Source: an uncultured Eubacteriaceae bacterium
Lineage (GTDB): Bacteria > Bacillota > Clostridia > Eubacteriales > UBA1433
Assembly (NCBI GenBank): GCA_964581565.1
Contig: CAZOOZ010000004.1
Span: forward strand, 82,115-146,114
Reading direction: 5' to 3'
Length of the DNA: 64,000 nt
Below the pieces are notes generated by a model. The model saw only the letters and a list, made by a program, of their open reading frames with translations. It searched no databases and had not been told where the DNA came from. Position numbers and translations under genes: made by a program. Below are positions 8,503-53,603 of this stretch, piece after piece. Position 1 is the stretch's first letter. Every line of letters starts with the position of its first letter.

Positions 8503-9282
8503 TTAATCATCGTTATGATCACATATGATTTTATATACGACTCCCCGATTTAAATTGAGGACTTCAGCTATTTTTCTTATTGATAAATTTGTATTATTTT
8601 TCAAAAATAGAACTATTTGTATTCTTTTTTCGATGTATTCTTTTTTGTGTAGATTACTTAGTAATATATCCGTAATGTTAAAATATTCTTTTATCAAAGC
8701 CTTAGCATCTATCAGTTCATTAGTGTTATTATTTAAATCCAAGATACAATCATTGCAATCTTCATTGATGAACTCTAAAAAATAAGTATATGTTCGAGGG
8801 TTTTGATTCATACAAGAGCATTGCTGTATATAATCATAATATTCATAATATATATCTTTTGCATTAACAGATAAAATTCTTTTATAATTATTCTGATTCG
8901 ATGTCGCATGATTTATGAAATATCTTATTACTTGTAAAAATCTATCTTCATCATAAATAGCCTCACTTAAATATCGGCTATAAAACACATGACCGTATCT
9001 GGAATTTTTTCTATTATAGTAGGCCGCATAGCTAATATTTACCCTCTTCATGATTTCTGCTATATTTAATAAATTTTCTTTTATTAAAAAATGAGCGTGA
9101 TCATCTAAAATACAATATGCACATACATCGTAGTTTTTATTTAAAGATTTATTGCGAATTATTTCAATAACCTTCTTTTTATCTTCATATTCAAGGAAAA
9201 TATTTTCTGAACTATTTCCTCTAACTATTGTATGATATATTTTCGAATTGTGATAATTTCTAGCTTGTCTTGCCATATGCAC
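8503..9282 (-). CDS. Y1/HUH (IS200/RAYT-like) transposase-fold protein with C-terminal helix-turn-helix, occupying the ctsR position
   Basis: 259 aa. N-terminal IYHTIVRGN, HUH motif in ILDDHAHFLI, then YGHVFYSRY and IRYFINH (candidate catalytic Tyr region). C-terminal LSIRKIAEVLNLNRGVVYKI is HTH-like. The gene ends 13 nt before the mcsA start. Confidence 0.65.
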   Translation of the reverse strand: MHMARQARNYHNSKIYHTIVRGNSSENIFLEYEDKKKVIEIIRNKSLNKNYDVCAYCILDDHAHFLIKENLLNIAEIMKRVNISYAAYYNRKNSRYGHVFYSRYLSEAIYDEDRFLQVIRYFINHATSNQNNYKRILSVNAKDIYYEYYDYIQQCSCMNQNPRTYTYFLEFINEDCNDCILDLNNNTNELIDAKALIKEYFNITDILLSNLHKKEYIEKRIQIVLFLKNNTNLSIRKIAEVLNLNRGVVYKIICDHNDD

Positions 9283-9293
9283 CCCTCGAAATG

Positions 9294-9322
9294 ATTATAG
9301 CATGAAATAATTAAATTGACAA
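9294..9322 (-). promoter_or_regulatory. candidate sigma-A promoter for the 8503-9282/mcsA/mcsB/clpC operon
   Basis: On the minus strand: TTGTCA (9322-9317), 17-nt spacer, TATAAT (9299-9294), about 12 nt upstream of the ATG region at 9282. Confidence 0.5.
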
Positions 9323-9353
9323 TAGGGACAGATAATATTGTCAATTTAATTAT
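9307..9353. promoter_or_regulatory. 18-bp perfect inverted repeat (ATAATTAAATTGACAATA - 11 nt - TATTGTCAATTTAATTAT), operator-like; may also terminate the upstream small ORF
   Basis: The arms at 9307-9324 and 9336-9353 are exact reverse complements. The left arm overlaps the -35 of the operon promoter. Confidence 0.6.
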
Positions 9354-14880: not shown

Positions 14881-15029
14881 TTAATTTCCTCGTAATTTAA
14901 GATATGTTGCCTTTATATTCTATATTGTTTAGATAAAAATGTAAATTAGTAAATTAAATAGATAAAAATTTATTTGCGAAATATGATGATAACGATATAG
15001 TTTATTATAAGCAAATTTCAAATTTATGC

Positions 15030-15474
15030 AAACAGATAAGCAGACCTGCAATCTCATATAAGAAGAGGTCTGCTTAACTTTTGAAGATGTACCGCAATGG
15101 TGTACTTCCTCCTTTTTCTCTCCTATCCCACTCATCTATAAAACTCATATTCTATAATTAAGAAATAAAGTATTCATGATCAATGGGAAGGTACATATTT
15201 GAAAATTACAGTTTGGCAACCATTGCAAGCCGCTTATAATCTTCTCAACCAAATACGTTATAGCTGTTTTCATTTATATCTTTTCTTTATATGATCCATC
15301 CTATGCTTTTGATAAACGATATACAGTAAAATTACTGTTTTTTCGTTTTCTCTAAACCCTTAGGCTCAACATACTTTGAAACATATATTGAATCAATACT
15401 GAAAATGCATATCCGTACAGGTGCGTAACCTTATCGGAGGTTCCAGATAATTCGGTAAACCTTTTCATCTGGTG
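15030..15474 (-). ncRNA. candidate ~445-nt structured non-coding RNA of unassigned family (copy 1)
   Basis: Bounded by its own promoter and hairpin terminator. No SD-preceded ORF. Several nested and long-range complementary segments (listed in findings). Confidence 0.55.
15037..15076 (-). terminator. hairpin terminator at the 3' end of the repeat-encoded RNA (copy 1)
   Basis: 10-bp stem TAAGCAGACC/GGTCTGCTTA with a 20-nt loop. It is followed on the minus strand by AUCUGUUU (a weak U tract). Confidence 0.5.
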
Positions 15475-15480
15475 GGTTTC

Positions 15481-15509
15481 ATTGTATACGATATCACTTT
15501 CTTTGTCAA
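15481..15509 (-). promoter_or_regulatory. near-consensus sigma-A promoter of the repeat-encoded RNA (copy 1)
   Basis: On the minus strand: TTGACA (15509-15504), 17-nt spacer, TACAAT (15486-15481), preceded by an A-rich UP-like tract (AAAAATTTCCAAAAAAGTA). Confidence 0.7.
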
Positions 15510-15532
15510 TACTTTTTTGGAAATTTTTTACT

Positions 15533-16021
15533 CTAATTTTCTGCGTCTGTATGAATTACCAAAACCGGACACGGGGCTTCTGCCAGTACTCTTTGTGCAA
15601 CCGAACCAATAAAGAAACGTTTTATTTTAGAAAAGCCTCTGTTTCCTATAACAATCAAATCAAATTTTTCATTTTGGGCTGTTTCTAAAATTTTAATATA
15701 AGGCTCGCCAAAATATATTTGTGTTTCAAACTCAATATTTGTAAAATCAAATTCGGAAAGAATAGATTCTAGCAAATCTGATGCATTATGCACCATTATT
15801 TGCTTCAATGCTTCATCATCTATTTTTGTGTCCCTGCCGATAATGATTGAACCATCAACTTGGCGCCAGAGCTGTTCGTTTATTTTAAACATTCTTGCAT
15901 AGTCATAATGAACGACGGTAATCAGTTTAAGATACGATTTTTTGGCTTTTGATATTTCTATCGCTTTTTTTACAGCATTTTTAGAGGCGGTAGATCCGTC
16001 TACAGGAACTAATATTTTCAT
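15533..16021 (-). CDS. universal stress protein (UspA family, ATP-binding type)
   Basis: 162 aa starting MKILVPVDGS, with the C-terminal G-x2-G-x9-G(S/T) motif (GNRGFSKIKRFFIGSVAQ). Confidence 0.85.
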   Translation of the reverse strand: MKILVPVDGSTASKNAVKKAIEISKAKKSYLKLITVVHYDYARMFKINEQLWRQVDGSIIIGRDTKIDDEALKQIMVHNASDLLESILSEFDFTNIEFETQIYFGEPYIKILETAQNEKFDLIVIGNRGFSKIKRFFIGSVAQRVLAEAPCPVLVIHTDAEN

Positions 16022-16092
16022 GATAATCTCCTTTAAATTTATTGAAAATATTTTTTTGAAAAAATGATGTGTAAATATTATCTATATTTTTA

Positions 16093-16980
16093 TTATGATT
16101 GAAGTTCCGTTTCCTTTTTTACTATATTTATTAAATAATGCAAAAATTCATCTTTAATATCTTTTCGTTTTAAGGCTGTTTCAACGGTTGCTTCTAAAAA
16201 GCCTTGTTTGCTTCCTAAATCATAACGTCGACCTTCGAATATATAAGCGAAAACTTTTTCAACTTCAGCGAGTTTGTTTAATGCATCTGTTAGCTGTATT
16301 TCTCCTCCTTTACCCGGCGATGTTTCATCAAGTATTTTAAATATTGTTGGTGTAATGATATATCTTCCCAAGATTGCTATGTCGGATGGAGCATCACTTT
16401 CTGAAGGTTTTTCTACAAGACCGTTCACTTGATAAATGCTATCAGTTATTTTTTTCCCGTCAACTATACCATATTTATTAACTTGAGAAAGCTCAACTTG
16501 CTGAACACCCAAAATTGTTGATTGATAGTTGTCAAATACGTCAATCATTTGTTTTAAACATGGCGTGTGATCGTTATCTACAACATCATCGCCAAGCAAA
16601 ACTGCAAAAGGTTCATTACCTACAAATGTTCTCGCGCAATAAATTGCATGTCCGAGTCCCTTAGGTTCTTTTTGTCTTATATAATGGATTTCGGCAAGTT
16701 CGGAGATGTCTTTTACAATTTTTAAGAGATCGAAATTGTTTTTTCGTTCAAGTTCTTGTTCAAATTCAATTGATCGATCAAAATGATCTTCGATCGCTCG
16801 TTTGTTTTTTCCTGTAATAATGAGAATTTCATCGATTCCGGAATTTATTGCTTCTTCAATAATATATTGAATAGTGGGTTTGTCTACAATCGGAAGCATT
16901 TCTTTTGGCATTGCTTTTGTTGCCGGCAAAAAACGCGTTCCCAATCCTGCTGCCGGAATGATCGCTTTTCGTACACGCAT
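16093..16980 (-). CDS. galU: UTP--glucose-1-phosphate uridylyltransferase
   Basis: KAIIPAAGLGTRFLPATKAMPKEMLPIVDKP N-terminus and LGDD motif; 295 aa. Confidence 0.93.
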   Translation of the reverse strand: MRVRKAIIPAAGLGTRFLPATKAMPKEMLPIVDKPTIQYIIEEAINSGIDEILIITGKNKRAIEDHFDRSIEFEQELERKNNFDLLKIVKDISELAEIHYIRQKEPKGLGHAIYCARTFVGNEPFAVLLGDDVVDNDHTPCLKQMIDVFDNYQSTILGVQQVELSQVNKYGIVDGKKITDSIYQVNGLVEKPSESDAPSDIAILGRYIITPTIFKILDETSPGKGGEIQLTDALNKLAEVEKVFAYIFEGRRYDLGSKQGFLEATVETALKRKDIKDEFLHYLINIVKKETELQS

Positions 16981-17361
16981 ATTAATTTATACCTGCCTTT
17001 ATCATTGCATAATTAATTATTATAATATTGCTTTTTGTTTTAAAGAATAACATATTGAATAGAAAATTTCAACCAACAAGGGTTTTTACGTGTTCATAAA
17101 AAATAAAAATTTAGATAGTTTTCTTATGATTGACAGAGTAATAAAATTTGTATTTTTCTATGCAATATGTTAGCATTGTAAATAATATTTCAGTTTTGTT
17201 AATATAAATTTACATAAAATTTACTTGTGCCAGTATAAAATTAAAGACGTGATATTTAAGTTTAGCAAAATATTATTTCAGATAAAATATTCTGCTTTGT
17301 AGATATTATTAAAAAACATATAGACAATAGACATAAAGGCTAAATGATAGGAGGAATGATA

Positions 17362-19551
17362 ATGAATAAAATAATTATTATTTCAAACAGATTACCCATC
17401 ACAGTGCAAAAAAATATTGAGAATAATATTGAATATATAGAAAGTATAGGTGGTTTATCTACCGGACTAAAAAATATTCATCACCAAGGCAACAGTATTT
17501 GGATCGGTTGGCCGGGTATATCAACAGATAAATTAACAGAAAATGAAAGAAATGATATAAATAGAACATTAATTAAAGATTATAAATGCCTTCCTGTTTT
17601 TTTGTCTGAAGATGAAGTAAATCTTTATTATCATGGTTTTTGTAATAAAACAATATGGCCATTGTTTCATTATTTTCAAGAAAAAACTGAATATGATTTT
17701 GAAACTTGGGAAACATATAAATCGGTAAATTTGAAATTTTTTAAAACAGTTGAATCGATAATCGAAAAAAACGATATTGTTTGGGTGCATGACTATCAGT
17801 TAATGTTGCTTCCTGAAATGATAAAAACAAAATATTACAGCACACAAGTTGGTTTCTTTTTACATATCCCCTTCCCTTCAGCTGAAATATTTAGATTGTT
17901 AATTTGGCGCAATGAAATTTTAACTGGAATTCTAGGTGCTGACTTAATCGGCTTTCATACTTATGACTATGTCCGGCATTTTTTGAGCAGTGCGAGAAGG
18001 TTGCTTGGATTGGAAGATAATTTAAATAAAATAGCATATGAAAATAGATATGTGCAAGTCAATGCTTTTCCTATGGGCATTGAATATAAACGTTTTTTTC
18101 AATACTGTGAAGTACATGATATTGTTGATAATGATGAGGATGATTTTGTAAATATAGGAAATATAAAAACAATACTCTCAGTCGACAGGCTCGACTATAC
18201 GAAAGGTATTCCGCAACGCATAAAATCATTTGGCAGATTTTTAAAAAATTATCCTGAATATCAAGGGAAGGTAATCTTAATTTTGATAGTTGCTCCATCA
18301 AGAGTGGAAGTTGACTCTTATAATCAATTATTACGACAAATCAAAGAGCAAATCAGTGAAATAAACGGAAGATACGGAACCATGAAATGGGTACCGATAT
18401 TATTTTTCTTTCGTTCTTTTAGTCAAGAAAAATTAATAGAATTTTACAGGCAGACAGATGTTTTACTTGTGACTCCGCTAAGAGACGGAATGAATTTAGT
18501 GGCAAAGGAATATATAGCTTCGAGAAATGACTATAAAGGAATGGTGGTAATCAGTGAAACTGCAGGTGCCGCTAGTGAATTGGGAGAAGCGATTATAGTC
18601 AATGCCAATGATTTTAATTCAACAGCCGAAGGAATCAAAATTGCGCTTGAAATGCCGGAAGAAGAGATTATCACAAGAAATAAAAGGATGCATGAGCGGT
18701 TAAAACGTTATAATGTTTACTTTTGGACTTCGGAATTTTTAAATTCTCTCAATCAAACTGTGATAGAATCAATCAATATAAGTACGCAAAAAAATGCAGA
18801 AGAAAATATTGAGATTATTAAAACTGAATATAAAAAAGCAAATAAAAGAGTTTTGTTTTTAGATTATGATGGCACTTTGGTAGGGCTTACATCAATACCT
18901 GAAAAGGCAAAACCTGATGAACAAATTAAAAATTTATTGACAAAATTAGCATCTGATCCACAAAATACTGTAGTAATCATTTCGGGCAGAGATCGCTATG
19001 TATTAACAAAATGGTTGGGGGATCTAAATTTATCTCTAATTGCATCTCATGGATTATGGCTGCGAACAGAAAAACAAGATGAATGGAGAATAATGATTGA
19101 TTTAGATAATGATTGGAAAAGCTCGGTGCGTACTATTTTAGAATTATATACAGACCGTATCCCTGGTTCATTTATTGAGGAAAAAGAATTTTCTTTAGCG
19201 TGGCATTACAGGCAGTGTGATCCGGATATTGTAGCATCAAAACTTAGTGAAATCAAAGATGCACTTCTATCTATGATTCAATCCAGCACTTTAGAGCTGA
19301 TAAATGGAAATAAAGTATTAGAGATAAACGATAGCAGATTTAACAAAGGATATGCGGCTTTGAATTTATTGCAAAATCAAGAGTGTGATTTTATATTTGC
19401 TGTTGGTGATGATGCCACAGATGAAGATTTATTTTCATTATTGCCAAAAAATGCGTACACTATTAAAATAGGAGCTGGTAGCACAAATGCGGGCTATAGA
19501 ATGAAGTCATGGCGCTCTCTAAGAAAAATGTTGGAGGAATTGACTGATTAA
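17362..19551 (+). CDS. otsA: fused trehalose-6-phosphate synthase (GT20) / trehalose-6-phosphate phosphatase
   Basis: The N-terminal ~470 aa carry GT20 motifs (ISNRLP, WVHDYQLMLLP, GFFLHIPFPS). The C-terminal ~240 aa carry HAD TPP motifs (LFLDYDGTL, GDDATDEDLF). Start set at ATG 17362, 7 nt after AGGAGG; the track start is 17344. Confidence 0.9.
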   Translation: MNKIIIISNRLPITVQKNIENNIEYIESIGGLSTGLKNIHHQGNSIWIGWPGISTDKLTENERNDINRTLIKDYKCLPVFLSEDEVNLYYHGFCNKTIWPLFHYFQEKTEYDFETWETYKSVNLKFFKTVESIIEKNDIVWVHDYQLMLLPEMIKTKYYSTQVGFFLHIPFPSAEIFRLLIWRNEILTGILGADLIGFHTYDYVRHFLSSARRLLGLEDNLNKIAYENRYVQVNAFPMGIEYKRFFQYCEVHDIVDNDEDDFVNIGNIKTILSVDRLDYTKGIPQRIKSFGRFLKNYPEYQGKVILILIVAPSRVEVDSYNQLLRQIKEQISEINGRYGTMKWVPILFFFRSFSQEKLIEFYRQTDVLLVTPLRDGMNLVAKEYIASRNDYKGMVVISETAGAASELGEAIIVNANDFNSTAEGIKIALEMPEEEIITRNKRMHERLKRYNVYFWTSEFLNSLNQTVIESINISTQKNAEENIEIIKTEYKKANKRVLFLDYDGTLVGLTSIPEKAKPDEQIKNLLTKLASDPQNTVVIISGRDRYVLTKWLGDLNLSLIASHGLWLRTEKQDEWRIMIDLDNDWKSSVRTILELYTDRIPGSFIEEKEFSLAWHYRQCDPDIVASKLSEIKDALLSMIQSSTLELINGNKVLEINDSRFNKGYAALNLLQNQECDFIFAVGDDATDEDLFSLLPKNAYTIKIGAGSTNAGYRMKSWRSLRKMLEELTD

Positions 19552-19597
19552 ACTATATCATTACCTGTATATCAGGCAGAAAGGAGATTTAGTTTGT

Positions 19598-21877
19598 ATG
19601 AAAGATGACATCTATGAAGTTACCGATCTAAATTTAAGTACATATCATCTTAAGTTAAATGAAGCATTGTTTCATAATGCAAACGGGTATATTGGAATCA
19701 GATATGATTTTGAAGAAGGTTACGGAGATAAAATGAAATATATCCCGAGCCAGTATATCAATGGATTTTATGATTTTACAGAGATGAAACAGGCAGAAAA
19801 TTTATATGGCTTAATAAGAGAAAAACATGTCATGGTAAATATAGCAAATACTCAATTTATAAAATTATATGTTGATGATGAAGAATTTAGCATGTTTACC
19901 GGTACAATATTGCAAAGTAAATTATCCTTAAATATGGACAAAGGAATAACAATAAGAGATGTGATTTGGCGTTCTCCTAAAGGCAAAGAAGTGCATATTG
20001 CCATAAAACGCATGGCATCTTTTCATCAGTTATCGCTTTTTACGATTGACTATGAAATAGAATTATTAAATTTTTCAGGGAAAGTAGTTTTTGACTCCTT
20101 GCATGATGGCAATGTAATGAATTATGCACAACCATTTGATCCTCGTATTGCGGATGACTTTGAAAGTTATATTTACCCCGTAAATTGTGAAATTAAAAAT
20201 GAAGGATCATGTATCACTTCTGTGACATCAAAATCTAATTTAAATGTATGCAGCTATGTAAAAAATATATTTTTTAAAGAGCATCAAAATGAATTTAAAA
20301 TTAATAATAATCAAACTTTAAATCGAATAAAAGCATATGCCGATAAAGGTGAAAAGATTAGATTAATTAAGTATGCCGTATTTTCAGATTCTATTCGTTA
20401 TAAAAATTGTAAAGAACAATGTTATAAGGAGATGAAAAATGCACTTGCTTTGCCTATAGAAGACTTATATAAAAAGCAGGAAATGTATATTGCAAATTTT
20501 TGGGAAAATTGTTTAATCGAAATTGATGGCGATGATGAGTTGGATATGGCGTTGAATTTTAATTTATATCAACTTTTGCAATCTGTGAGCAAAGATCAAT
20601 TCGGTAATATTTCTCCCAAAGGACTCAGCGGAGATGGATACGACGGACATTATTTTTGGGATTCTGAAATGTATGTACAACCATTTTTTACAATTACAAA
20701 TCCGAAAATGACAAAAAAGCTGATTGAATATCGTTATGCTATATTAGATAAAGCAAGAGAAAACGCAAGGTTGCTCGGTCATAAAAATGGAGCGCTTTAT
20801 CCATGGAGAACAATAATGGGGAAAGAATGTTCCGGATATTTTCCGGCAGGATCTGCGCAGTATCATATAAACGGAGACATAGCATATTCAATTATTGCCT
20901 ATTATCTAGCGACGAAAGATGAAGAGTTATTATTAAAACAAGGAATGGAAATTATTTTTGAAACAGCAAGGATATGGCTTGATACAGGAAATTTTCATGA
21001 TGAAAAATTTCATATTAATACGGTGACAGGCCCGGACGAGTATACTTGCCTGGTGAACAATAATTATTACACAAATGTCTTGGCGCAATATCATTTAAAT
21101 TGGGCTGTGAAATTTTATTATCTCTTTAAAGATAATGAAAGCTTTGCGGAATTAACAAAAAAAATAAATCTATACGAAGATGAAATTAAAACATATAAGA
21201 TTGCTGCAAATGCAATGTATTTACCTTATGACGAAACATTAAAAATCAATCCACAGGATGATTCGTTTCTGCAAAAGGAAAAATGGGATATTGCCAGTAT
21301 TCCAAAAGAATTCTTTCCCTTGCTTCTTCACTATCATCCCCTTCATATTTACAGATATCAGATATGTAAGCAAGCCGATACGGTTATGGCACATTTCATC
21401 ATTGAAGATGCACAATCTGAAGAAACAATGAAAAATTCGCTTTTATATTACGAAAAAATAACAACACATGATTCTTCTTTATCAAAGCCGATTTTTAGCA
21501 TTATGGCTGCGAGACTTGGCATGGAAAAGAAAGCATATAAGTATTTCGGAGATTCGGCAAAATTAGATTTAATGGACTTAAATAAAAATACTGAAGACGG
21601 AGTGCATATAGCTAATATGGCTGGAAGTTATTTGATGATCGTCTATGGCTTTGCTGGATTTAGATTAAAAGAAAGCGGAATATCATTTTGGCCAATGATA
21701 CCAGATGAATGGAATTCATATTCTTTTAGAATAGTATATGAAAACAGTAGAATTAAGGTAAGTATTCATAAAGAAGAATGCTTATTCTATCTCGAAAAAG
21801 GAAAAAGGAAAAAGATAAAAGTTTATGGCAAAGAATATCTATTAAAAGATCATTTAATTGTTGAAAAATCAAATTAA
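19598..21877 (+). CDS. GH65 glycoside phosphorylase (trehalose/kojibiose/maltose phosphorylase family)
   Basis: 759 aa with GLSGDGYDGHYFWDSEMY, the GH65 catalytic-domain signature region. The trehalose substrate is inferred from context only. Confidence 0.85.
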   Translation: MKDDIYEVTDLNLSTYHLKLNEALFHNANGYIGIRYDFEEGYGDKMKYIPSQYINGFYDFTEMKQAENLYGLIREKHVMVNIANTQFIKLYVDDEEFSMFTGTILQSKLSLNMDKGITIRDVIWRSPKGKEVHIAIKRMASFHQLSLFTIDYEIELLNFSGKVVFDSLHDGNVMNYAQPFDPRIADDFESYIYPVNCEIKNEGSCITSVTSKSNLNVCSYVKNIFFKEHQNEFKINNNQTLNRIKAYADKGEKIRLIKYAVFSDSIRYKNCKEQCYKEMKNALALPIEDLYKKQEMYIANFWENCLIEIDGDDELDMALNFNLYQLLQSVSKDQFGNISPKGLSGDGYDGHYFWDSEMYVQPFFTITNPKMTKKLIEYRYAILDKARENARLLGHKNGALYPWRTIMGKECSGYFPAGSAQYHINGDIAYSIIAYYLATKDEELLLKQGMEIIFETARIWLDTGNFHDEKFHINTVTGPDEYTCLVNNNYYTNVLAQYHLNWAVKFYYLFKDNESFAELTKKINLYEDEIKTYKIAANAMYLPYDETLKINPQDDSFLQKEKWDIASIPKEFFPLLLHYHPLHIYRYQICKQADTVMAHFIIEDAQSEETMKNSLLYYEKITTHDSSLSKPIFSIMAARLGMEKKAYKYFGDSAKLDLMDLNKNTEDGVHIANMAGSYLMIVYGFAGFRLKESGISFWPMIPDEWNSYSFRIVYENSRIKVSIHKEECLFYLEKGKRKKIKVYGKEYLLKDHLIVEKSN

Positions 21878-21908
21878 CGTTAATAATGATAAAACAATGA
21901 GGGAAATT

Positions 21909-22544
21909 ATGAAGTATAAAGCAATTGTTTTTGATCTTGACGGAGTATTATGCAATACTGATAAATATCATTATTTAGCTTGGAAACAGCTCACTGATGA
22001 ATTAGGCATCAATTTTGATGAACAGATAAATAATCGACTCCGGGGAATCGGTCGTATGGATAGTTTAAATATTATTTTAGAATCTTATGAAGAGGCATTT
22101 TCTAACGAAGAAAAAGTGGCTTTAACGGAAAAAAAGAATACATATTATAAGAAATATCTTGAAGATTTATCCGAAAAGGATCTTTTACCGGAAATAAAAG
22201 ATACACTTGATAAACTTAGAGCAAAAAAATTAAAATTGGCTATAGGTTCTTCAAGCAAAAATACAAAGCTCATATTAAAACAATTGGGATTAGGAAATTA
22301 TTTCGATGCTATATCTGACGGAACCAATATTCATAAATCAAAACCCGATCCTGAGGTTTATTTAAAAGCGAGTATATTTTTAAATATCCAACCTCAAGAT
22401 TGCCTGGTTGTTGAAGATGCTCTCTCTGGTATTCAAGCCGCAACAGCGGCTGGGATGGATTGTGCGGCTATCGGCGATGGAGTCAGATACAATCTTGCGC
22501 GTTATAGTTTAAATACATTTTCAGAACTATTAAATATAGTTTAG
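21909..22544 (+). CDS. pgmB: beta-phosphoglucomutase
   Basis: MKYKAIVFDLDGVL HAD motif I, GSSSKN, and EDALSGIQAA. Follows a GH65 gene. Start moved to ATG 21909, after GAGGGA. Confidence 0.88.
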   Translation: MKYKAIVFDLDGVLCNTDKYHYLAWKQLTDELGINFDEQINNRLRGIGRMDSLNIILESYEEAFSNEEKVALTEKKNTYYKKYLEDLSEKDLLPEIKDTLDKLRAKKLKLAIGSSSKNTKLILKQLGLGNYFDAISDGTNIHKSKPDPEVYLKASIFLNIQPQDCLVVEDALSGIQAATAAGMDCAAIGDGVRYNLARYSLNTFSELLNIV

Positions 22545-22570
22545 TTTTCATATATATTCGTGGAGGAAAT

Positions 22571-23584
22571 GTGATGATTATAGCTGCTGATATTGGTGGG
22601 ACAAAGTCTGCCCTCGCCTATTTATATAATAAAAATGATAAAATATATATATTAAGACAAAAAAAATATTTAAATAAATATTTTAATTCATTTGAAGAAG
22701 TATTGGAAACTTTCTTCAGCGAACATCCAGAAATAAAACAGATAAAGTATGCATGCTTTGCCGCCGCGGGGCCAATTATGGATGATAAGTGCTATATGGT
22801 CAATTTAGGCTGGACAGTCGATAAGAAAAAAATTATAGAAAAATTTCCAAGTATTCAAAACATAGTATTGTGTAATGATCTTGAAGCAGTTGGTTTTGGA
22901 TTAAAAATCTTATCAGATAAAGAAATTATTAATCTTACTCCGCAACTGCATAATAATCATTTTGAAGATGAAAAGAGATATGCGATTATAGCGCCGGGGA
23001 CTGGTCTCGGAGAAGCGCTTATAATAAATGATAAAGTATATCCTTCAGAAGGGTCTCACTGTAATTTCGGACCTAATTCTAAAAAGCAAATGCAGTTGTG
23101 GGAATTTCTTTTTAAAAAATTCGGGCATGTCAGTTATGAAAGAATTTTATCCGGCCCTGGTTTGCGTGAGGTGTTTCTTTTCTTAATAAGCGAAAAGAAA
23201 ATCGATAATGCAGAATTTGAAATAATTCCGGAAGAAATTACGAAAAGAGCACTTGCAGGCACCTGTGAAATATGTAAAGAAACAATCGATTTATTTGCGG
23301 AAGTATTAGGATCCGAAGCAGGAAATGCAGCTTTAAGAATACTTGCTGTGGATGGGATATATTTAGGTGGTGGAATTTTACCTAAAATTTTACCTTTAAT
23401 ACAAGAACAAAAATTTTTAGATGCATTTTATAAAAAAGGAAGATTTACCGATTTAATAAAAAAAATTCCTGTATTTATTATTATGAACAGTAACGCCGCA
23501 CTTTATGGAGCTGCTTTAGTTGCTTTTAATAAACTATATCCAATGATACAGTTTGATGCAATTGAAGATGATGTAGTGAATTAA
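22571..23584 (+). CDS. glk: glucokinase (Glk family)
   Basis: IAADIGGTKSALA N-terminus and GGGI near the C-terminus; 337 aa. A GGAGG SD lies upstream; the start is GTG 22571 or ATG 22574. Confidence 0.8.
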   Translation: MMIIAADIGGTKSALAYLYNKNDKIYILRQKKYLNKYFNSFEEVLETFFSEHPEIKQIKYACFAAAGPIMDDKCYMVNLGWTVDKKKIIEKFPSIQNIVLCNDLEAVGFGLKILSDKEIINLTPQLHNNHFEDEKRYAIIAPGTGLGEALIINDKVYPSEGSHCNFGPNSKKQMQLWEFLFKKFGHVSYERILSGPGLREVFLFLISEKKIDNAEFEIIPEEITKRALAGTCEICKETIDLFAEVLGSEAGNAALRILAVDGIYLGGGILPKILPLIQEQKFLDAFYKKGRFTDLIKKIPVFIIMNSNAALYGAALVAFNKLYPMIQFDAIEDDVVN

Positions 23585-23603
23585 TTAAAATGCAATTATT
23601 TAT

Positions 23604-24048
23604 AAACAGATAAGCAGACCTGCAATCTCATATAAGAAGAGGTCTGCTTAACTTTTGAAGATGTACCGCAATGGTGTACTTCCTCCTTTTTCTCTCCTAT
23701 CCCACTCATCTATAAAACTCATATTCTATAATTAAGAAATAAAGTATTCATGATCAATGGGAAGGTACATATTTGAAAATTACAGTTTGGCAACCATTGC
23801 AAGCCGCTTATAATCTTCTCAACCAAATACGTTATAGCTGTTTTCATTTATATCTTTTCTTTATATGATCCATCCTATGCTTTTGATAAACGATATACAG
23901 TAAAATTACTGTTTTTTCGTTTTCTCTAAACCCTTAGGCTCAACATACTTTGAAACATATATTGAATCAATACTGAAAATGCATATCCGTACAGGTGCGT
24001 AACCTTATCGGAGGTTCCAGATAATTCGGTAAACCTTTTCATCTGGTG
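23604..24048 (-). ncRNA. candidate ~445-nt structured non-coding RNA of unassigned family (copy 2)
   Basis: Same promoter, body and terminator as copy 1. Here it is convergent with glk. Confidence 0.55.
23611..23650. terminator. hairpin shared by the copy-2 RNA (minus strand) and probably glk (plus strand)
   Basis: 10-bp stem TAAGCAGACC/GGTCTGCTTA located 27 nt after the glk stop. It is followed by AACTTTT on the plus strand and ATCTGTTT on the minus strand. Confidence 0.5.
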
Positions 24049-24054
24049 GGTTTC

Positions 24055-24083
24055 ATTGTATACGATATCACTTTCTTTGTCAA
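24055..24083 (-). promoter_or_regulatory. near-consensus sigma-A promoter of the repeat-encoded RNA (copy 2)
   Basis: TTGACA (24083-24078), 17 nt, TACAAT (24060-24055) on the minus strand. Confidence 0.7.
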
Positions 24084-24240
24084 TACTTTTTTGGAAATTT
24101 TTAATATTTATTAAATTATCATATAGTATTCACATAAATACCATCTGCATATCAATTTCAGTAAGTATTATCTTCTTATTAAATCGGCATTTGCATGTTT
24201 TCAATTTATGAACTAAATAATATTTCAAAGGCAAAATGAG

Positions 24241-25170
24241 ATGAACAATCATTCGGAGCCAATTATTATTTTATATAATTTAAATTTACAAAACATATTA
24301 TCTATTAAAAAGATAAAAGAATCTGGATTGCATAATATCAGCGTAAAATATGATGAAAAAAATGACGTCATTGATATTATTGACGACAACAGAAAATCAC
24401 AAAAATATGCTTGCATATCTTGCGACATAAAATATAGCAGAATAATTAATGAAATAATCGCCGGAATAGATTATGCGAATAAAAACTATTCTAATTGTTC
24501 TGGCTATATAGTCATTGATGCTCAATATGGAGGATTGAGTATCAATAAAATACAAAAAAATGTAAATAGATTAAAATGCAATTTTAAAAATCATAAATTA
24601 TTGTTTTTAAATTTTGTTTCAAATTTTATATTTTTTTCATTTTGTCATGTTAAATTTGGATATTTTAATAGGTATTTGCATTTAATAGCAATACCAAGAA
24701 ACGTATCAAAAGCATCTTTGTCGATGTTGGATAAGTCATATAGAACCTTCATTTATAATATCTTTTTTAAATTATATTATAATATATATAAATATAGCCT
24801 GTCTTCCTTCATGTGTGCAATTGTGGATTTATCATTATTTTATTTTTTAAATATGTTGTTTGGTTCTACAGCAAACGGAATTTTAGCTTCAACCGTACTT
24901 GCAAGATTAACTTCAGGAAGCACCAATTTTGCTCTAAATAAATATTGGGTATTTAAAAGTAAAAATTATATTAATAAAGAATTATATAAATATATTGGAT
25001 TATTTTGTTTTCAAATGATTTCAAGTTGGATATTTGTAACATTACTCGGCAATTTCTCGATACCACTTTTATTTACGAAAATATTTGTAGACATGATGCT
25101 ATTTATTATGAGTTACTTCATACAGAAAAAATATATTTTTAACGACAAAAAGGAAATAGAGCATTTATGA
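24241..25170 (+). CDS. membrane protein with a C-terminal GtrA-like domain and an uncharacterised N-terminal domain
   Basis: The C-terminal 130 aa have 4 TM segments and LTSGSTNFALNKYWVFKS, the GtrA signature region. The N-terminal ~170 aa have no motif I recognise. Confidence 0.6.
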   Translation: MNNHSEPIIILYNLNLQNILSIKKIKESGLHNISVKYDEKNDVIDIIDDNRKSQKYACISCDIKYSRIINEIIAGIDYANKNYSNCSGYIVIDAQYGGLSINKIQKNVNRLKCNFKNHKLLFLNFVSNFIFFSFCHVKFGYFNRYLHLIAIPRNVSKASLSMLDKSYRTFIYNIFFKLYYNIYKYSLSSFMCAIVDLSLFYFLNMLFGSTANGILASTVLARLTSGSTNFALNKYWVFKSKNYINKELYKYIGLFCFQMISSWIFVTLLGNFSIPLLFTKIFVDMMLFIMSYFIQKKYIFNDKKEIEHL

Positions 25171-26087
25171 GAAGATTAAAACACTTTTTTGCAAAACCAT
25201 ATAGATGGGCTATCATATATTCTTTTGTGTTAGTTAGTTTTTTTGTATTTGCACTGATTGATACATTTATAATTCCAAAATTAATGATTGTAGAAGAAAG
25301 CAAAGAAAATTCATTGCCGGAAACCGCTCTTCAAGATTCAAGTGAAGCTATCATTACAGATTTATCGTATAAAGACAAAAATATAGAAATTACAATACAA
25401 ACAATAAGAGAATACGAGACGACAATTTACATAGCTGATATTCAGCTGTTTGATGCATCTTATTTAAAAACAGCATTCGCTGAAAACGCATTCGGACGCA
25501 ATATCAAGGAAAAAACTTCTGGTATTGCTAAAAAAAACAATGTAATTTTTGCTGTAAACGGTGATTACTATGGATTTAGAGATAAAGGATATGTACTGCG
25601 TAATGGCGTGCTTTATCGCTCTGTTTCAAGAGATAATGAAAATGTTGATGACTTGGTTATAAATAATTCAGGAAATTTATATATTATTCAAGAGAATGAA
25701 GTCAGTATAGAATCATTAAACATAGATAACATTAGTCAAATATTTTCATTTGGACCGGCTTTAGTAGAAAATGGGCAGATTATTGTCAGCAGCGCCAGTG
25801 AGGTGGATCAATCCAAAAACAGCAATCCCCGCACTGCCATTGGGCAAATATCGCCTCTTCATTATATTATTATTGTTTCTGATGGACGTACTGATGAGAG
25901 TGAAGGTCTTTCATTATTACAGCTTGCACAGGTATTTTTGGATCAAGGCTGCAGTGTTGCTTATAACTTAGACGGTGGCGGTTCATCCACAATGTATTTT
26001 AACGGAACAATTATTAATAATCCTACAGATGGCAGAAATGATGGAGAAAGAGAGATAAGTGACATTATATATATTGGATATGAATAA
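25167..26087 (+). CDS. phosphodiester glycosidase family protein (DUF2233/NAGPA-like)
   Basis: N-terminal TM anchor, AVNGDYYGFR, RTAIGQ, and NLDGGGSSTMYF motifs. Confidence 0.8.
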   Translation: MRRLKHFFAKPYRWAIIYSFVLVSFFVFALIDTFIIPKLMIVEESKENSLPETALQDSSEAIITDLSYKDKNIEITIQTIREYETTIYIADIQLFDASYLKTAFAENAFGRNIKEKTSGIAKKNNVIFAVNGDYYGFRDKGYVLRNGVLYRSVSRDNENVDDLVINNSGNLYIIQENEVSIESLNIDNISQIFSFGPALVENGQIIVSSASEVDQSKNSNPRTAIGQISPLHYIIIVSDGRTDESEGLSLLQLAQVFLDQGCSVAYNLDGGGSSTMYFNGTIINNPTDGRNDGEREISDIIYIGYE

Positions 26088-26481
26088 AAATAAACAGCTT
26101 TTTAAAACATCTGCAGTCTATTTTGTCTTATCTATAACGGCAATCCTTGTAAATAATGTTTATGCCATTTTTGGTCATGGAATGCGCTCGGCGGCTATGA
26201 CCTGGATGTTTTTATATTTATTAATAGGGGGAACACTTTTCTATTTGTCAATTAGGTTTTTCTTTGTAAAAATTACAAAGCATAAGAGTTACAGAGTTTT
26301 TTTCAATCTTTATAATTCAGGAATTGCTGCTCTTACAGCGGGTAGCTTATTTAAAGGCATCATCGAAATTGCCGGCTCAAGTTGTGTGCATACGAAAATA
26401 TTTTTTATAGTTGGTTTGGTGTGTATTTTATTTTCCAGTATTATTTTGATATTGATGATATTTGAAAGCAAATGGACGTAA
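26059..26481 (+). CDS. small hypothetical integral membrane protein
   Basis: 140 aa (or about 133 aa from ATG 26080) with 4 hydrophobic helices. Overlaps the upstream gene, so it is probably co-transcribed. Confidence 0.5.
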   Translation: MTLYILDMNKNKQLFKTSAVYFVLSITAILVNNVYAIFGHGMRSAAMTWMFLYLLIGGTLFYLSIRFFFVKITKHKSYRVFFNLYNSGIAALTAGSLFKGIIEIAGSSCVHTKIFFIVGLVCILFSSIILILMIFESKWT

Positions 26482-26590
26482 TACATATTATTGGTAATTT
26501 TTTTAATAAAATTAAAACAGTATGCATATACTATGTTTGCTGAAGTGTTTTTTTATACTCTATATTAATATATAAACAGTAGAGGAAAAT

Positions 26591-33262: not shown

Positions 33263-33339
33263 TGGAGCTACTGAGCGGACTCGAACCGCTGACCTGCTGA
33301 TTACGAATCAGCTGCTCTACCAACTGAGCCACAGTAGCT
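33263..33339 (-). tRNA. tRNA-Thr (anticodon CGU), CCA encoded
   Basis: The reverse complement folds by hand into a cloverleaf. Acceptor AGCTACT/AGTAGCT, D arm GGCT..GAGC, anticodon stem GCTGA/TCAGC with loop TTCGTAA, T arm AGCGG-TTCGAGT-CCGCT, 3' CCA. Confidence 0.9.
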
Positions 33340-53251: not shown

Positions 53252-53603
53252 TGGTGGAGGCGGCGGGAGTTGAACCCGCGTCCAAAAGCGTATTCACAAA
53301 ATTTTCTCCGAGTGCATTCGCTTTTCTTTTTTCATTTTCATTTAGACGGGCGACCGACTGAATGAAAACTATCCTCTTAAATTTTCAAAAGATTTCGAGG
53401 AAAAATCATTTGAGTTTCCTGCATTATTTGATGCCTTAAAATATCACGCAGGAATGATAAATCAAGACATTGCAGCAATTACGCTGCAAAAGCTAATTTT
53501 TCGTTTTTAGCGTTTAAATTTAATTGCCATCATTATAACGGTATTTGGCATTCCCGACTCGCTTATTTTGCTTCAACACCCCTGTCGAAACCATTGCGCC
53601 CCC
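53252..53603 (-). ncRNA. ssrA: tmRNA (SsrA)
   Basis: 5' GGGGGCGCAATGGTTTCGACAGGGG and 3' GGACGCGGGTTCAACTCCCGCCGCCTCCACCA. The acceptor stem has a G3-U pair. The tag frame GCT AAA AAC GAA AAA TTA GCT TTT GCA GCG TAA encodes AKNEKLAFAA and is followed by the GCAGC/GCTGC hairpin. Confidence 0.95.

Follow-up and report, generated by a model that had tools for sequence, protein, structure and literature searches.

The question raised by this locus is why two copies of a non-coding sequence, placed on either side of a trehalose cassette and some 8 kb apart, are identical: because they arrived recently, or because something keeps them so. The locus lies in a 64-kb stretch of contig CAZOOZ010000004.1 from an uncultured Eubacteriaceae bacterium; the whole stretch was analysed and is called the window. 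In it a 499-bp sequence, R, occurs twice in direct orientation (R1 on the left, R2 on the right; Table 1), and the module between the copies encodes a universal stress protein (usp), GalU, a fused OtsAB, a GH65 phosphorylase, PgmB and glucokinase (glk). Comparison with relatives indicates that the R-module-R layout is old, not a recent insertion, and has been inherited vertically among uncultured Eubacteriaceae that form a clade at the level of a genus, and that the R copies evolve in concert; we regard these two statements, taken jointly, as probable.

Repeat pair and its concerted evolution

Base-by-base comparison at an offset of 8574 confirms the pair of direct repeats that the initial annotation had described: identity is unbroken over 499 bp, drops to background immediately beyond both edges, and encloses 8075 bp (15529-23603). 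The claim that both edges lie within 4-20 nt of gene ends also holds, the usp open reading frame (ORF) ending 4 nt from the R1 edge and the glk ORF 19 nt from the R2 edge. Self-BLAST finds no other repeat longer than 45 nt in the window, which excludes a chance origin of the 499-bp identity. In population contigs of the same species the copies usually differ at R position 423 (T beside usp, C beside the GtrA-like gene to the right of R2), and in one sample they differ additionally at position 80. The true within-genome identity of R in this species is 99.6-100%, and the perfect identity in the window reflects the state of one strain or else arose when the assembly formed a consensus.

A sister species was found by a genome scan with the DER1-like protein encoded to the left of R1. 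It is represented by the metagenome-assembled genome 'uncultured Eubacteriaceae SRP241341_co1_246' (locus L038; 90% DER1 identity) and by an independent 285-kb contig of the Joint Genome Institute (JGI; L118). Within genomes, R copies match at 499 of 499 positions in the window, 505 of 506 in L038 and 502 of 507 in L118 (99.0-99.8% for the sister species); between species, window R and sister R match in 400 of 505 alignment columns (~79%, indels included). Over 12.6 kb L038 and L118 differ by four single-nucleotide polymorphisms (SNPs), all four of which fall inside R. The alleles at position 423 of the window species occur in both copies: beside usp the base is T in L020-L025 and C in L028, and beside the GtrA-like gene it is C in metagenome contigs and T in the window (contig-level data). 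At k = 31 and k = 141 alike, contig breaks fall precisely on an R edge or k-1 nt away from the SNPs at positions 423 and 80, which shows that the copies are truly identical elsewhere, over 422 nt. Paralogues closer than orthologues, a shared site with shared boundaries, and the same alleles at both copies are thus all found here, the signs by which concerted evolution is recognized. The R copies are alike within a genome because of concerted evolution, by gene conversion or exchange, and not because of recency, and recombination between them is ongoing.

Age and inheritance of the layout

The sister species carries the order DER1-a-R-usp-galU-otsAB-GH65-pgmB-glk-R, where a is a unique spacer, at the same site (L038, L118, L132, L133); its orthologue of R1 is L038 9334-9839 and that of R2 is L038 757-1260. 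In a third species (88% identity in DER1, 66% in glk) an 8189-bp unitig at k = 31 comprises the whole module with R sequence at both ends, and the DER1 unitig ends in the identical 30-mer; in a fourth (DER1 91%), contigs also break at the R edge. Repeat boundaries agree within ~4-10 nt in three species. With layout, site and boundaries shared in this way, the duplication of R is ancestral to at least three species.

The module has diverged along with its surroundings. Synonymous divergence (dS) between the window species and the sister species is 0.6-1.3, alike for module and flank genes, and module proteins, at 75-94% amino-acid identity between species, have diverged like flank proteins. The module has a G+C content (GC) of 0.322 against 0.300 in the flanks; relative synonymous codon usage correlates at r = 0.92, tetranucleotide frequencies correlate at r = 0.98, the same as between flank segments, and G+C at third codon positions (GC3) matches too. 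A foreign origin of the module, which the comparison of GC and codon usage proposed in the initial annotation might have revealed, is ruled out by this native composition. Since the module has diverged like its flanks and is native in composition, it has been inherited vertically with them.

The same annotation had suggested that the module may have been acquired by integration of a circle, an idea to be refuted by related genomes that carry the same arrangement with diverged repeats. The arrangement is indeed shared, by the sister species at dS ~0.6-1.3 and by the third species, but the repeats are homogenised within each genome; recent acquisition is not borne out. Nor did the search for an empty single-repeat site in related genomes find one: in distant Eubacteriaceae (DER1 63-69%) R and the module are both absent from the locus, and GntR-type genes lie upstream.

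Three points weigh on the other side. Complete R pairs are available from two lineages only, and all of them come from short-read assemblies, which are able to erase small differences between copies. Such erasure may account for the T/T state of the window at position 423, where the population has T/C. Finally, an ancestral single-R site was found in none of the related genomes examined, so that a Campbell-type origin is not demonstrable.

Empty-site and junction contigs in the reactor populations

The source experiment ran two laboratory reactors of the UASB type (upflow anaerobic sludge blanket) at 5 and 20 g Na+/L, with samples spanning days 79 to 217, and sequenced libraries of 2x151 nt with a mean insert of 279 bp (PMC9128505). 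Contigs were assigned to samples by matching their IMG ids to Table S7 of that study (PMC9128505). The window species appears in low-salinity samples (5 g Na+/L) only and the sister species in high-salinity samples (20 g Na+/L) only (loci from IMG 33000331xx and 3300034686), so that salinity apparently partitions the two. Contigs of 0.3-0.75 Mb are obtained for the sister species at 20 g Na+/L.

Among contigs of the window species all four exits from R are seen. The filled form, glk-R-GtrA, is present on day 106 (L011), and R-usp contigs are L020 and L025. The empty-site form, DER1-a-R-b-GtrA, in which b is the unique spacer to the right of R2, is present in L001 (12.1 kb, MEGAHIT, ERZ27252302) and in L005 (JGI, IMG 3300033172, low salinity, day 189), with flanks 100% identical to the window. 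The glk-R-usp junction expected of a circle or tandem array is present in one contig only (L024, IMG 3300033169, day 173). In this contig glk has lost 46 nt close to its 3' end (corresponding to window 23489-23534), and its product is cut to 308 amino acids; the deletion could mark a decaying internal copy in a tandem array or be a simple strain variant.

A stretch of 422 identical nucleotides is too long for inserts of 279 bp to span, and contigs that cross R may therefore be graph paths rather than molecules, each of them present only because rival branches of the graph were absent or had been pruned. Two observations count against reading them as molecules: the empty-site and glk-R-usp contigs are exactly the alternative graph paths of a purely filled genome, and in the better-covered sister species, where R is phased by five copy-specific SNPs (RNA-sense positions 19, 86, 185, 212 and 235), every R-crossing contig is filled (L132 and four similar contigs, L133). 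In the sample of L001, the module is split into contigs of 2.3 kb and 5.8 kb that stop short inside R, and the flanks are joined in one contig of 12 kb; this contrast favours a real excess of empty-site genomes. On balance we lean towards a real empty-site allele, and consider real amplification or circles doubtful. The deletion and amplification by RecA that the initial annotation had predicted therefore stand in part: the geometry is the standard substrate and both predicted products exist as contigs (L001, L005, L024), but these are not decisive, being possible graph chimeras. Excision and amplification are mechanistically sound, unproven, and only hinted at.

A more adaptive account would make the cassette a selected, copy-number-variable unit of osmoadaptation, with R identity maintained because repeated RecA-mediated loss, re-integration or tandem amplification of the trehalose genes has adaptive value in itself as salinity changes, and with the RNA of R as part of the control. 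It draws on the low-salinity series, in which the filled form is seen on day 106, glk-R-usp on day 173 and the empty site on day 189, set beside a sister species that is always filled at 20 g Na+/L. We judge this account unlikely.

The layout could also be a product of assembly, the genome having an empty site and a separate 8.6-kb circle (module plus R), or diverged copies having been collapsed to a consensus. The de Bruijn graph of a chromosome plus such a circle is identical to that of a filled chromosome, the inserts are shorter than R, contigs of empty and circle type exist, and position 423 reads T/T in the window against T/C in unitigs. The phased R of the sister species, filled in every spanning contig, argues against an artefact, as do the k = 31 and k = 141 unitigs, whose breaks at the R edges and at a single SNP leave the copies identical over 422 nt. 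A separate circle is further opposed by the content of the module, six metabolic and stress proteins with no replication or partition function. An artefact is quite unlikely.

Other explanations of the identical repeats

Recent acquisition would have a circle with the module and one R integrate into a resident R, leaving no time for the copies to diverge. Campbell integration yields exactly the R-module-R geometry, the window copies are 100% identical, and so are the flanks of the empty-site contigs to those of the window. Acquisition after speciation would, however, have to account for a module that is native in composition and diverged like its flanks, and for its having integrated independently in three species, each time at one site and with one pair of edges. 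Such a coincidence is itself very unlikely, and recent acquisition is largely refuted; we give it very little credence.

R might instead be a mobile element, such as a remnant of an insertion sequence (IS) or a miniature inverted-repeat transposable element (MITE), and the unit a composite transposon. Two direct copies with sharp ends around a cargo would fit, and a gene for an IS200-like Y1 transposase lies 6 kb away (8503-9282). Against this, R has no conserved ORF, no inverted repeats and no similar termini, no target-site duplication is found outside the unit, each genome holds two R copies at the same position in three species, and the Y1 gene keeps its synteny in every relative, whether R is present or not. 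Searches of R against phages and IMG/VR gave no match, and the sole match among plasmids is a chance match of 48 nt to a Finegoldia plasmid. The core of R occurs exactly twice in metagenome Ga0334896, which identifies R as a two-copy element and not a dispersed family; a scan of JGI metagenome contigs with a 22-nt R core returned the two copies of the sister species plus one contig end and nothing else. The dispersed-family possibility was likewise rejected by nhmmer over the window and 1.55 Mb of fetched loci, which places R solely in the four junction contexts. A mobile R is accordingly very improbable.

Two formal classes were also rejected. A composite transposon or IS-bounded unit would call for a transposase, terminal inverted repeats, target duplication and dispersal, none of which is found; an integrase-mobilised genomic island would call for a recombinase, and no recombinase domain lies in or beside the unit, with the tRNA and tmRNA genes 9-29 kb away.

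That strong purifying selection on an essential RNA or regulatory element keeps the copies alike without exchange is barely credible, for all the conserved blocks of R and its strongly stable, strand-specific fold, given that orthologues differ in ~21% of columns, indels included, against 0-1% for paralogues, and that the same two alleles occur at both positions.

R as a candidate RNA-encoding unit

The ends of R match those of a promoter-to-hairpin unit. A consensus-like promoter, P(-), sits 19 nt inside the right edge and reads leftward through R; its hexamers are invariant and its spacer is variable across three species. At the opposite end a G+C-rich hairpin (AAGCAGACC...GGTCTGCTT) is followed by UUAUCUGUUU, which ends exactly at the left edge of R. 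The hairpin stem is invariant and its apical loop variable in four species, and the R2 copy of the hairpin lies 28 nt past the glk stop. The DER1-like gene has a promoter-like motif of its own outside R, in region a, which four species share with distant Eubacteriaceae devoid of R; a role of R as promoter or leader of DER1 is ruled out on this ground. Together, the match of R to a promoter-to-hairpin unit and the separate DER1 promoter-like motif suggest that R is a discrete and probably RNA-encoding regulatory unit.

Fold predictions are strand-specific. The predicted ~445-nt RNA from the minus strand of R has a minimum free energy of -126.4 kcal/mol (z = -6.4 relative to shuffled sequences; plus strand, z = -2.95), and the sister orthologue behaves alike (minus strand, z = -6.1). 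In the two-lineage alignment there are 7 compensatory pairs against 0-1 in slid controls, and ~20 pairs are broken in the window sequence. Conserved blocks comprise a 50-nt core, a 100-nt 3' part and the promoter. The 50-nt block, 100% conserved between species, holds a second promoter-like site, P(+), and also folds as a G-U-rich hairpin in the minus-strand RNA model; P(+) in R2 is the sole strong promoter-like site on the plus strand upstream of the GtrA-like gene. Rfam 15 has no gathering-level match for R in the window or the sister copy, and only chance-level ones at E up to 10. A protein-coding R is ruled out, as no ORF is conserved between species: a plus-strand ORF of 24-26 codons keeps its length, with a conserved half that has no synonymous changes and another half that diverges non-synonymously.

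These features point to R as a discrete non-coding unit, probably specifying a structured minus-strand RNA of ~445 nt, a candidate RNA that is restricted to the clade and always co-occurs with the cassette. Telling against the RNA are that a simple terminator scan does not call the R hairpin, which has a long loop and a weak U tract, and that transcription of R is inferred.

Unconstrained duplex predictions of this RNA with 59 translation-start regions rank the module genes unremarkably. The best duplex (-47 kcal/mol; shuffles -31.6 +/- 3.2, minimum -42.3) is with the start region of the Y1 transposase-like gene (window 9282-9332). As a target this site was rejected, its multi-loop geometry with many large loops being implausible; the duplex is probably not meaningful.

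Cassette genes and neighbourhood

All six cassette genes have Pfam matches, and GalU, the fused synthase/phosphatase, beta-phosphoglucomutase and glucokinase score above curated NCBIfam cut-offs (Table 1). Judged by their families, the enzymes would together provide synthesis of UDP-glucose and trehalose and recycling of trehalose to glucose-6-phosphate. A more distant Clostridia-type genome (L129/L130, 4767-11032) has otsAB-GH65-pgmB-glk as one operon in another context, without usp, galU or R, which indicates that the four-gene trehalose cycle is a conserved unit by itself.

Table 1. Features of the repeat-bracketed locus (positions in the window; second-copy positions in brackets).
Feature	Position	Strand	Basis or remark
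Region a, unique spacer with the DER1-like gene's own promoter-like motif	14881-15029	-	TTTACA-17-TAGAAT at 14917-14945
R1, left 499-bp copy	15030-15528		Flanked by the promoter region belonging to the DER1-like gene and by the usp stop; exact match to 23604-24102
Candidate structured RNA of ~445 nt, P(-) to terminal hairpin	15030-15474 (R2: ~23604-24048)	-	Predicted fold
G+C-rich hairpin at left end of R, candidate bidirectional terminator	15038-15075 (R2: 23612-23649)		Read from sequence
P(+), promoter-like site	15213-15240 (R2: 23787-23814)	+	TTGGCA-16-TATAAT
P(-), promoter	15481-15509 (R2: 24055-24083)	-	TTGACA-17-TACAAT; 11 of 12 consensus matches
usp, universal stress protein family	15533-16021	-	PF00582, E = 1e-26
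galU, UTP-glucose-1-phosphate uridylyltransferase	16093-16980	-	TIGR01099, 399.6 bits (cut-off 326.8)
otsA-otsB fusion, bifunctional trehalose-6-phosphate synthase/phosphatase	17344-19551	+	NF011071, 964 bits (cut-off 634); PF00982 and PF02358
GH65 disaccharide phosphorylase; trehalose, maltose or kojibiose phosphorylase type	19598-21877	+	PF03636, PF03632, PF03633
pgmB, beta-phosphoglucomutase	21894-22544	+	TIGR01990, 244 bits (cut-off 189.4)
glk, glucokinase	22574-23584	+	TIGR00749, 248 bits (cut-off 225.45); PF02685
R2, right 499-bp copy	23604-24102		Between the glk stop and the GtrA-like gene
Region b, unique spacer from R2 to the GtrA-like gene	24103-24240	+	First ~74 nt conserved in the sister species

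The left flank consists of the DER1/rhomboid-like gene followed by tsaE-tsaB-rimI, and the right flank of GtrA-like, NAGPA, DUF2871 and spore photoproduct lyase genes. In the sister species the first three of these right-flank genes are missing (L038 546-1283 compared with window 24103-26590): the gene after region b is that for spore photoproduct lyase, ~210 nt after R2, and a three-gene indel thus abuts the right edge of R2.

Directly upstream of mcsA-mcsB-clpC, where ctsR would normally be expected, the Y1 gene (minus strand) encodes a protein of 257 amino acids with an IS200-like Y1 transposase domain and a faint helix-turn-helix. Its synteny in every relative examined (L002 6176-6949; L120, L123, L126, L132) suggests a domesticated regulator rather than a mobile IS. 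A tmRNA gene (53252-53603, minus strand, 195.8 bits) and a tRNA gene (33266-33338, minus strand) are not near the R-bracketed unit. A CRISPR direct-repeat model (RF01352; E = 0.15 and 0.47) weakly matches the conserved DER1 promoter-like motif at window 14911-14939 (plus strand) and L038 9942-9970; as a single copy with no array, this is almost certainly chance.

Proposed mechanism and significance

RecA-mediated recombination between direct repeats yields a deletion and a circle, or a tandem duplication by unequal sister exchange. Homologous recombination keeps sequence passing between the two copies of R, whether through gene conversion, repeated pop-out and re-integration, or both, and the exchange would be expected to depend on RecA, as homologous recombination generally does. 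Crossovers between the copies could delete the 8.1-kb cassette, leaving one R, or amplify it in tandem, and alleles of both kinds may be present in the reactor population. Selection for trehalose metabolism would remove the deletions and so could explain why the cassette is retained; relaxed selection at low salinity could let deletions rise. The layout may have originated when a circle integrated in the Campbell manner, or when an R-module-R fragment derived from a tandem array was inserted. In the filled state the R2 hairpin could terminate the glk operon and the R1 hairpin the galU-usp transcript after read-through of R, a placement for both transcripts that fits R being a functional part of the cassette.

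Direct repeats 8 kb apart are expected to lose their cargo readily. Here the R-module-R layout has outlived speciation with its repeats homogenised, a clean natural case in which deletion around a cassette for stress metabolism is balanced by gene conversion and selection. In the public set of 20 time-series metagenomes from paired low- and high-salinity reactors, a compatible-solute module could be tracked directly as it is gained, lost or amplified. The main value of the locus lies in its clear signal of concerted evolution, its candidate RNA and an unusually direct dataset for testing whether an osmoprotection cassette is gained or lost.

Comparison with known systems

The locus resembles Campbell-type integrants in that a segment lies between two direct copies of homology with its neighbours undisturbed, and in that the reverse crossover would give a single-copy site and a circle. 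It is unlike them in that no donor circle, replicon or ancestral single-copy site was found here, and in that the arrangement predates speciation. Amplifiable units of DNA (AUDs) in Streptomyces, the IS1016-flanked cap locus of Haemophilus influenzae type b and the rrn- or IS-bounded duplications of Salmonella and E. coli share with it a cargo of several kilobases between direct repeats of hundreds of base pairs. In such amplifiable units, RecA-dependent unequal exchange produces tandem arrays and deletions, and copy number can follow selection. The differences are that R is a 499-bp non-coding unit resembling an RNA gene, not an IS, an rRNA operon or a protein gene, and that the sole contig that would speak for amplification here is L024, which bears the glk deletion.

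In mode of evolution the locus is like tufA/tufB and rRNA operons, in which paralogues within a genome are far closer than orthologues and polymorphisms are common to both copies. The R copies, unlike these, are direct, 8 kb apart and non-coding, around a cargo that looks dispensable; with this geometry, deletion by crossover must be continually removed by selection or tolerated as polymorphism. Concerted evolution of bacterial paralogues by gene conversion is general background to this comparison (PMC12046097). Composite transposons, integrase islands and developmentally excised elements such as skin and the nifD element also hold a cargo between direct repeats, potentially excisable as a circle, but the present unit has no transposase, integrase, terminal inverted repeat, target duplication or tRNA/tmRNA target, and its repeats are far longer than attachment (att) sites. 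Literature searched by SRA or IMG identifiers yielded the provenance of the samples and nothing on this locus. What is new relative to the known examples is that the repeat is a non-coding unit resembling an RNA gene, and that the direct-repeat layout has persisted through speciation.

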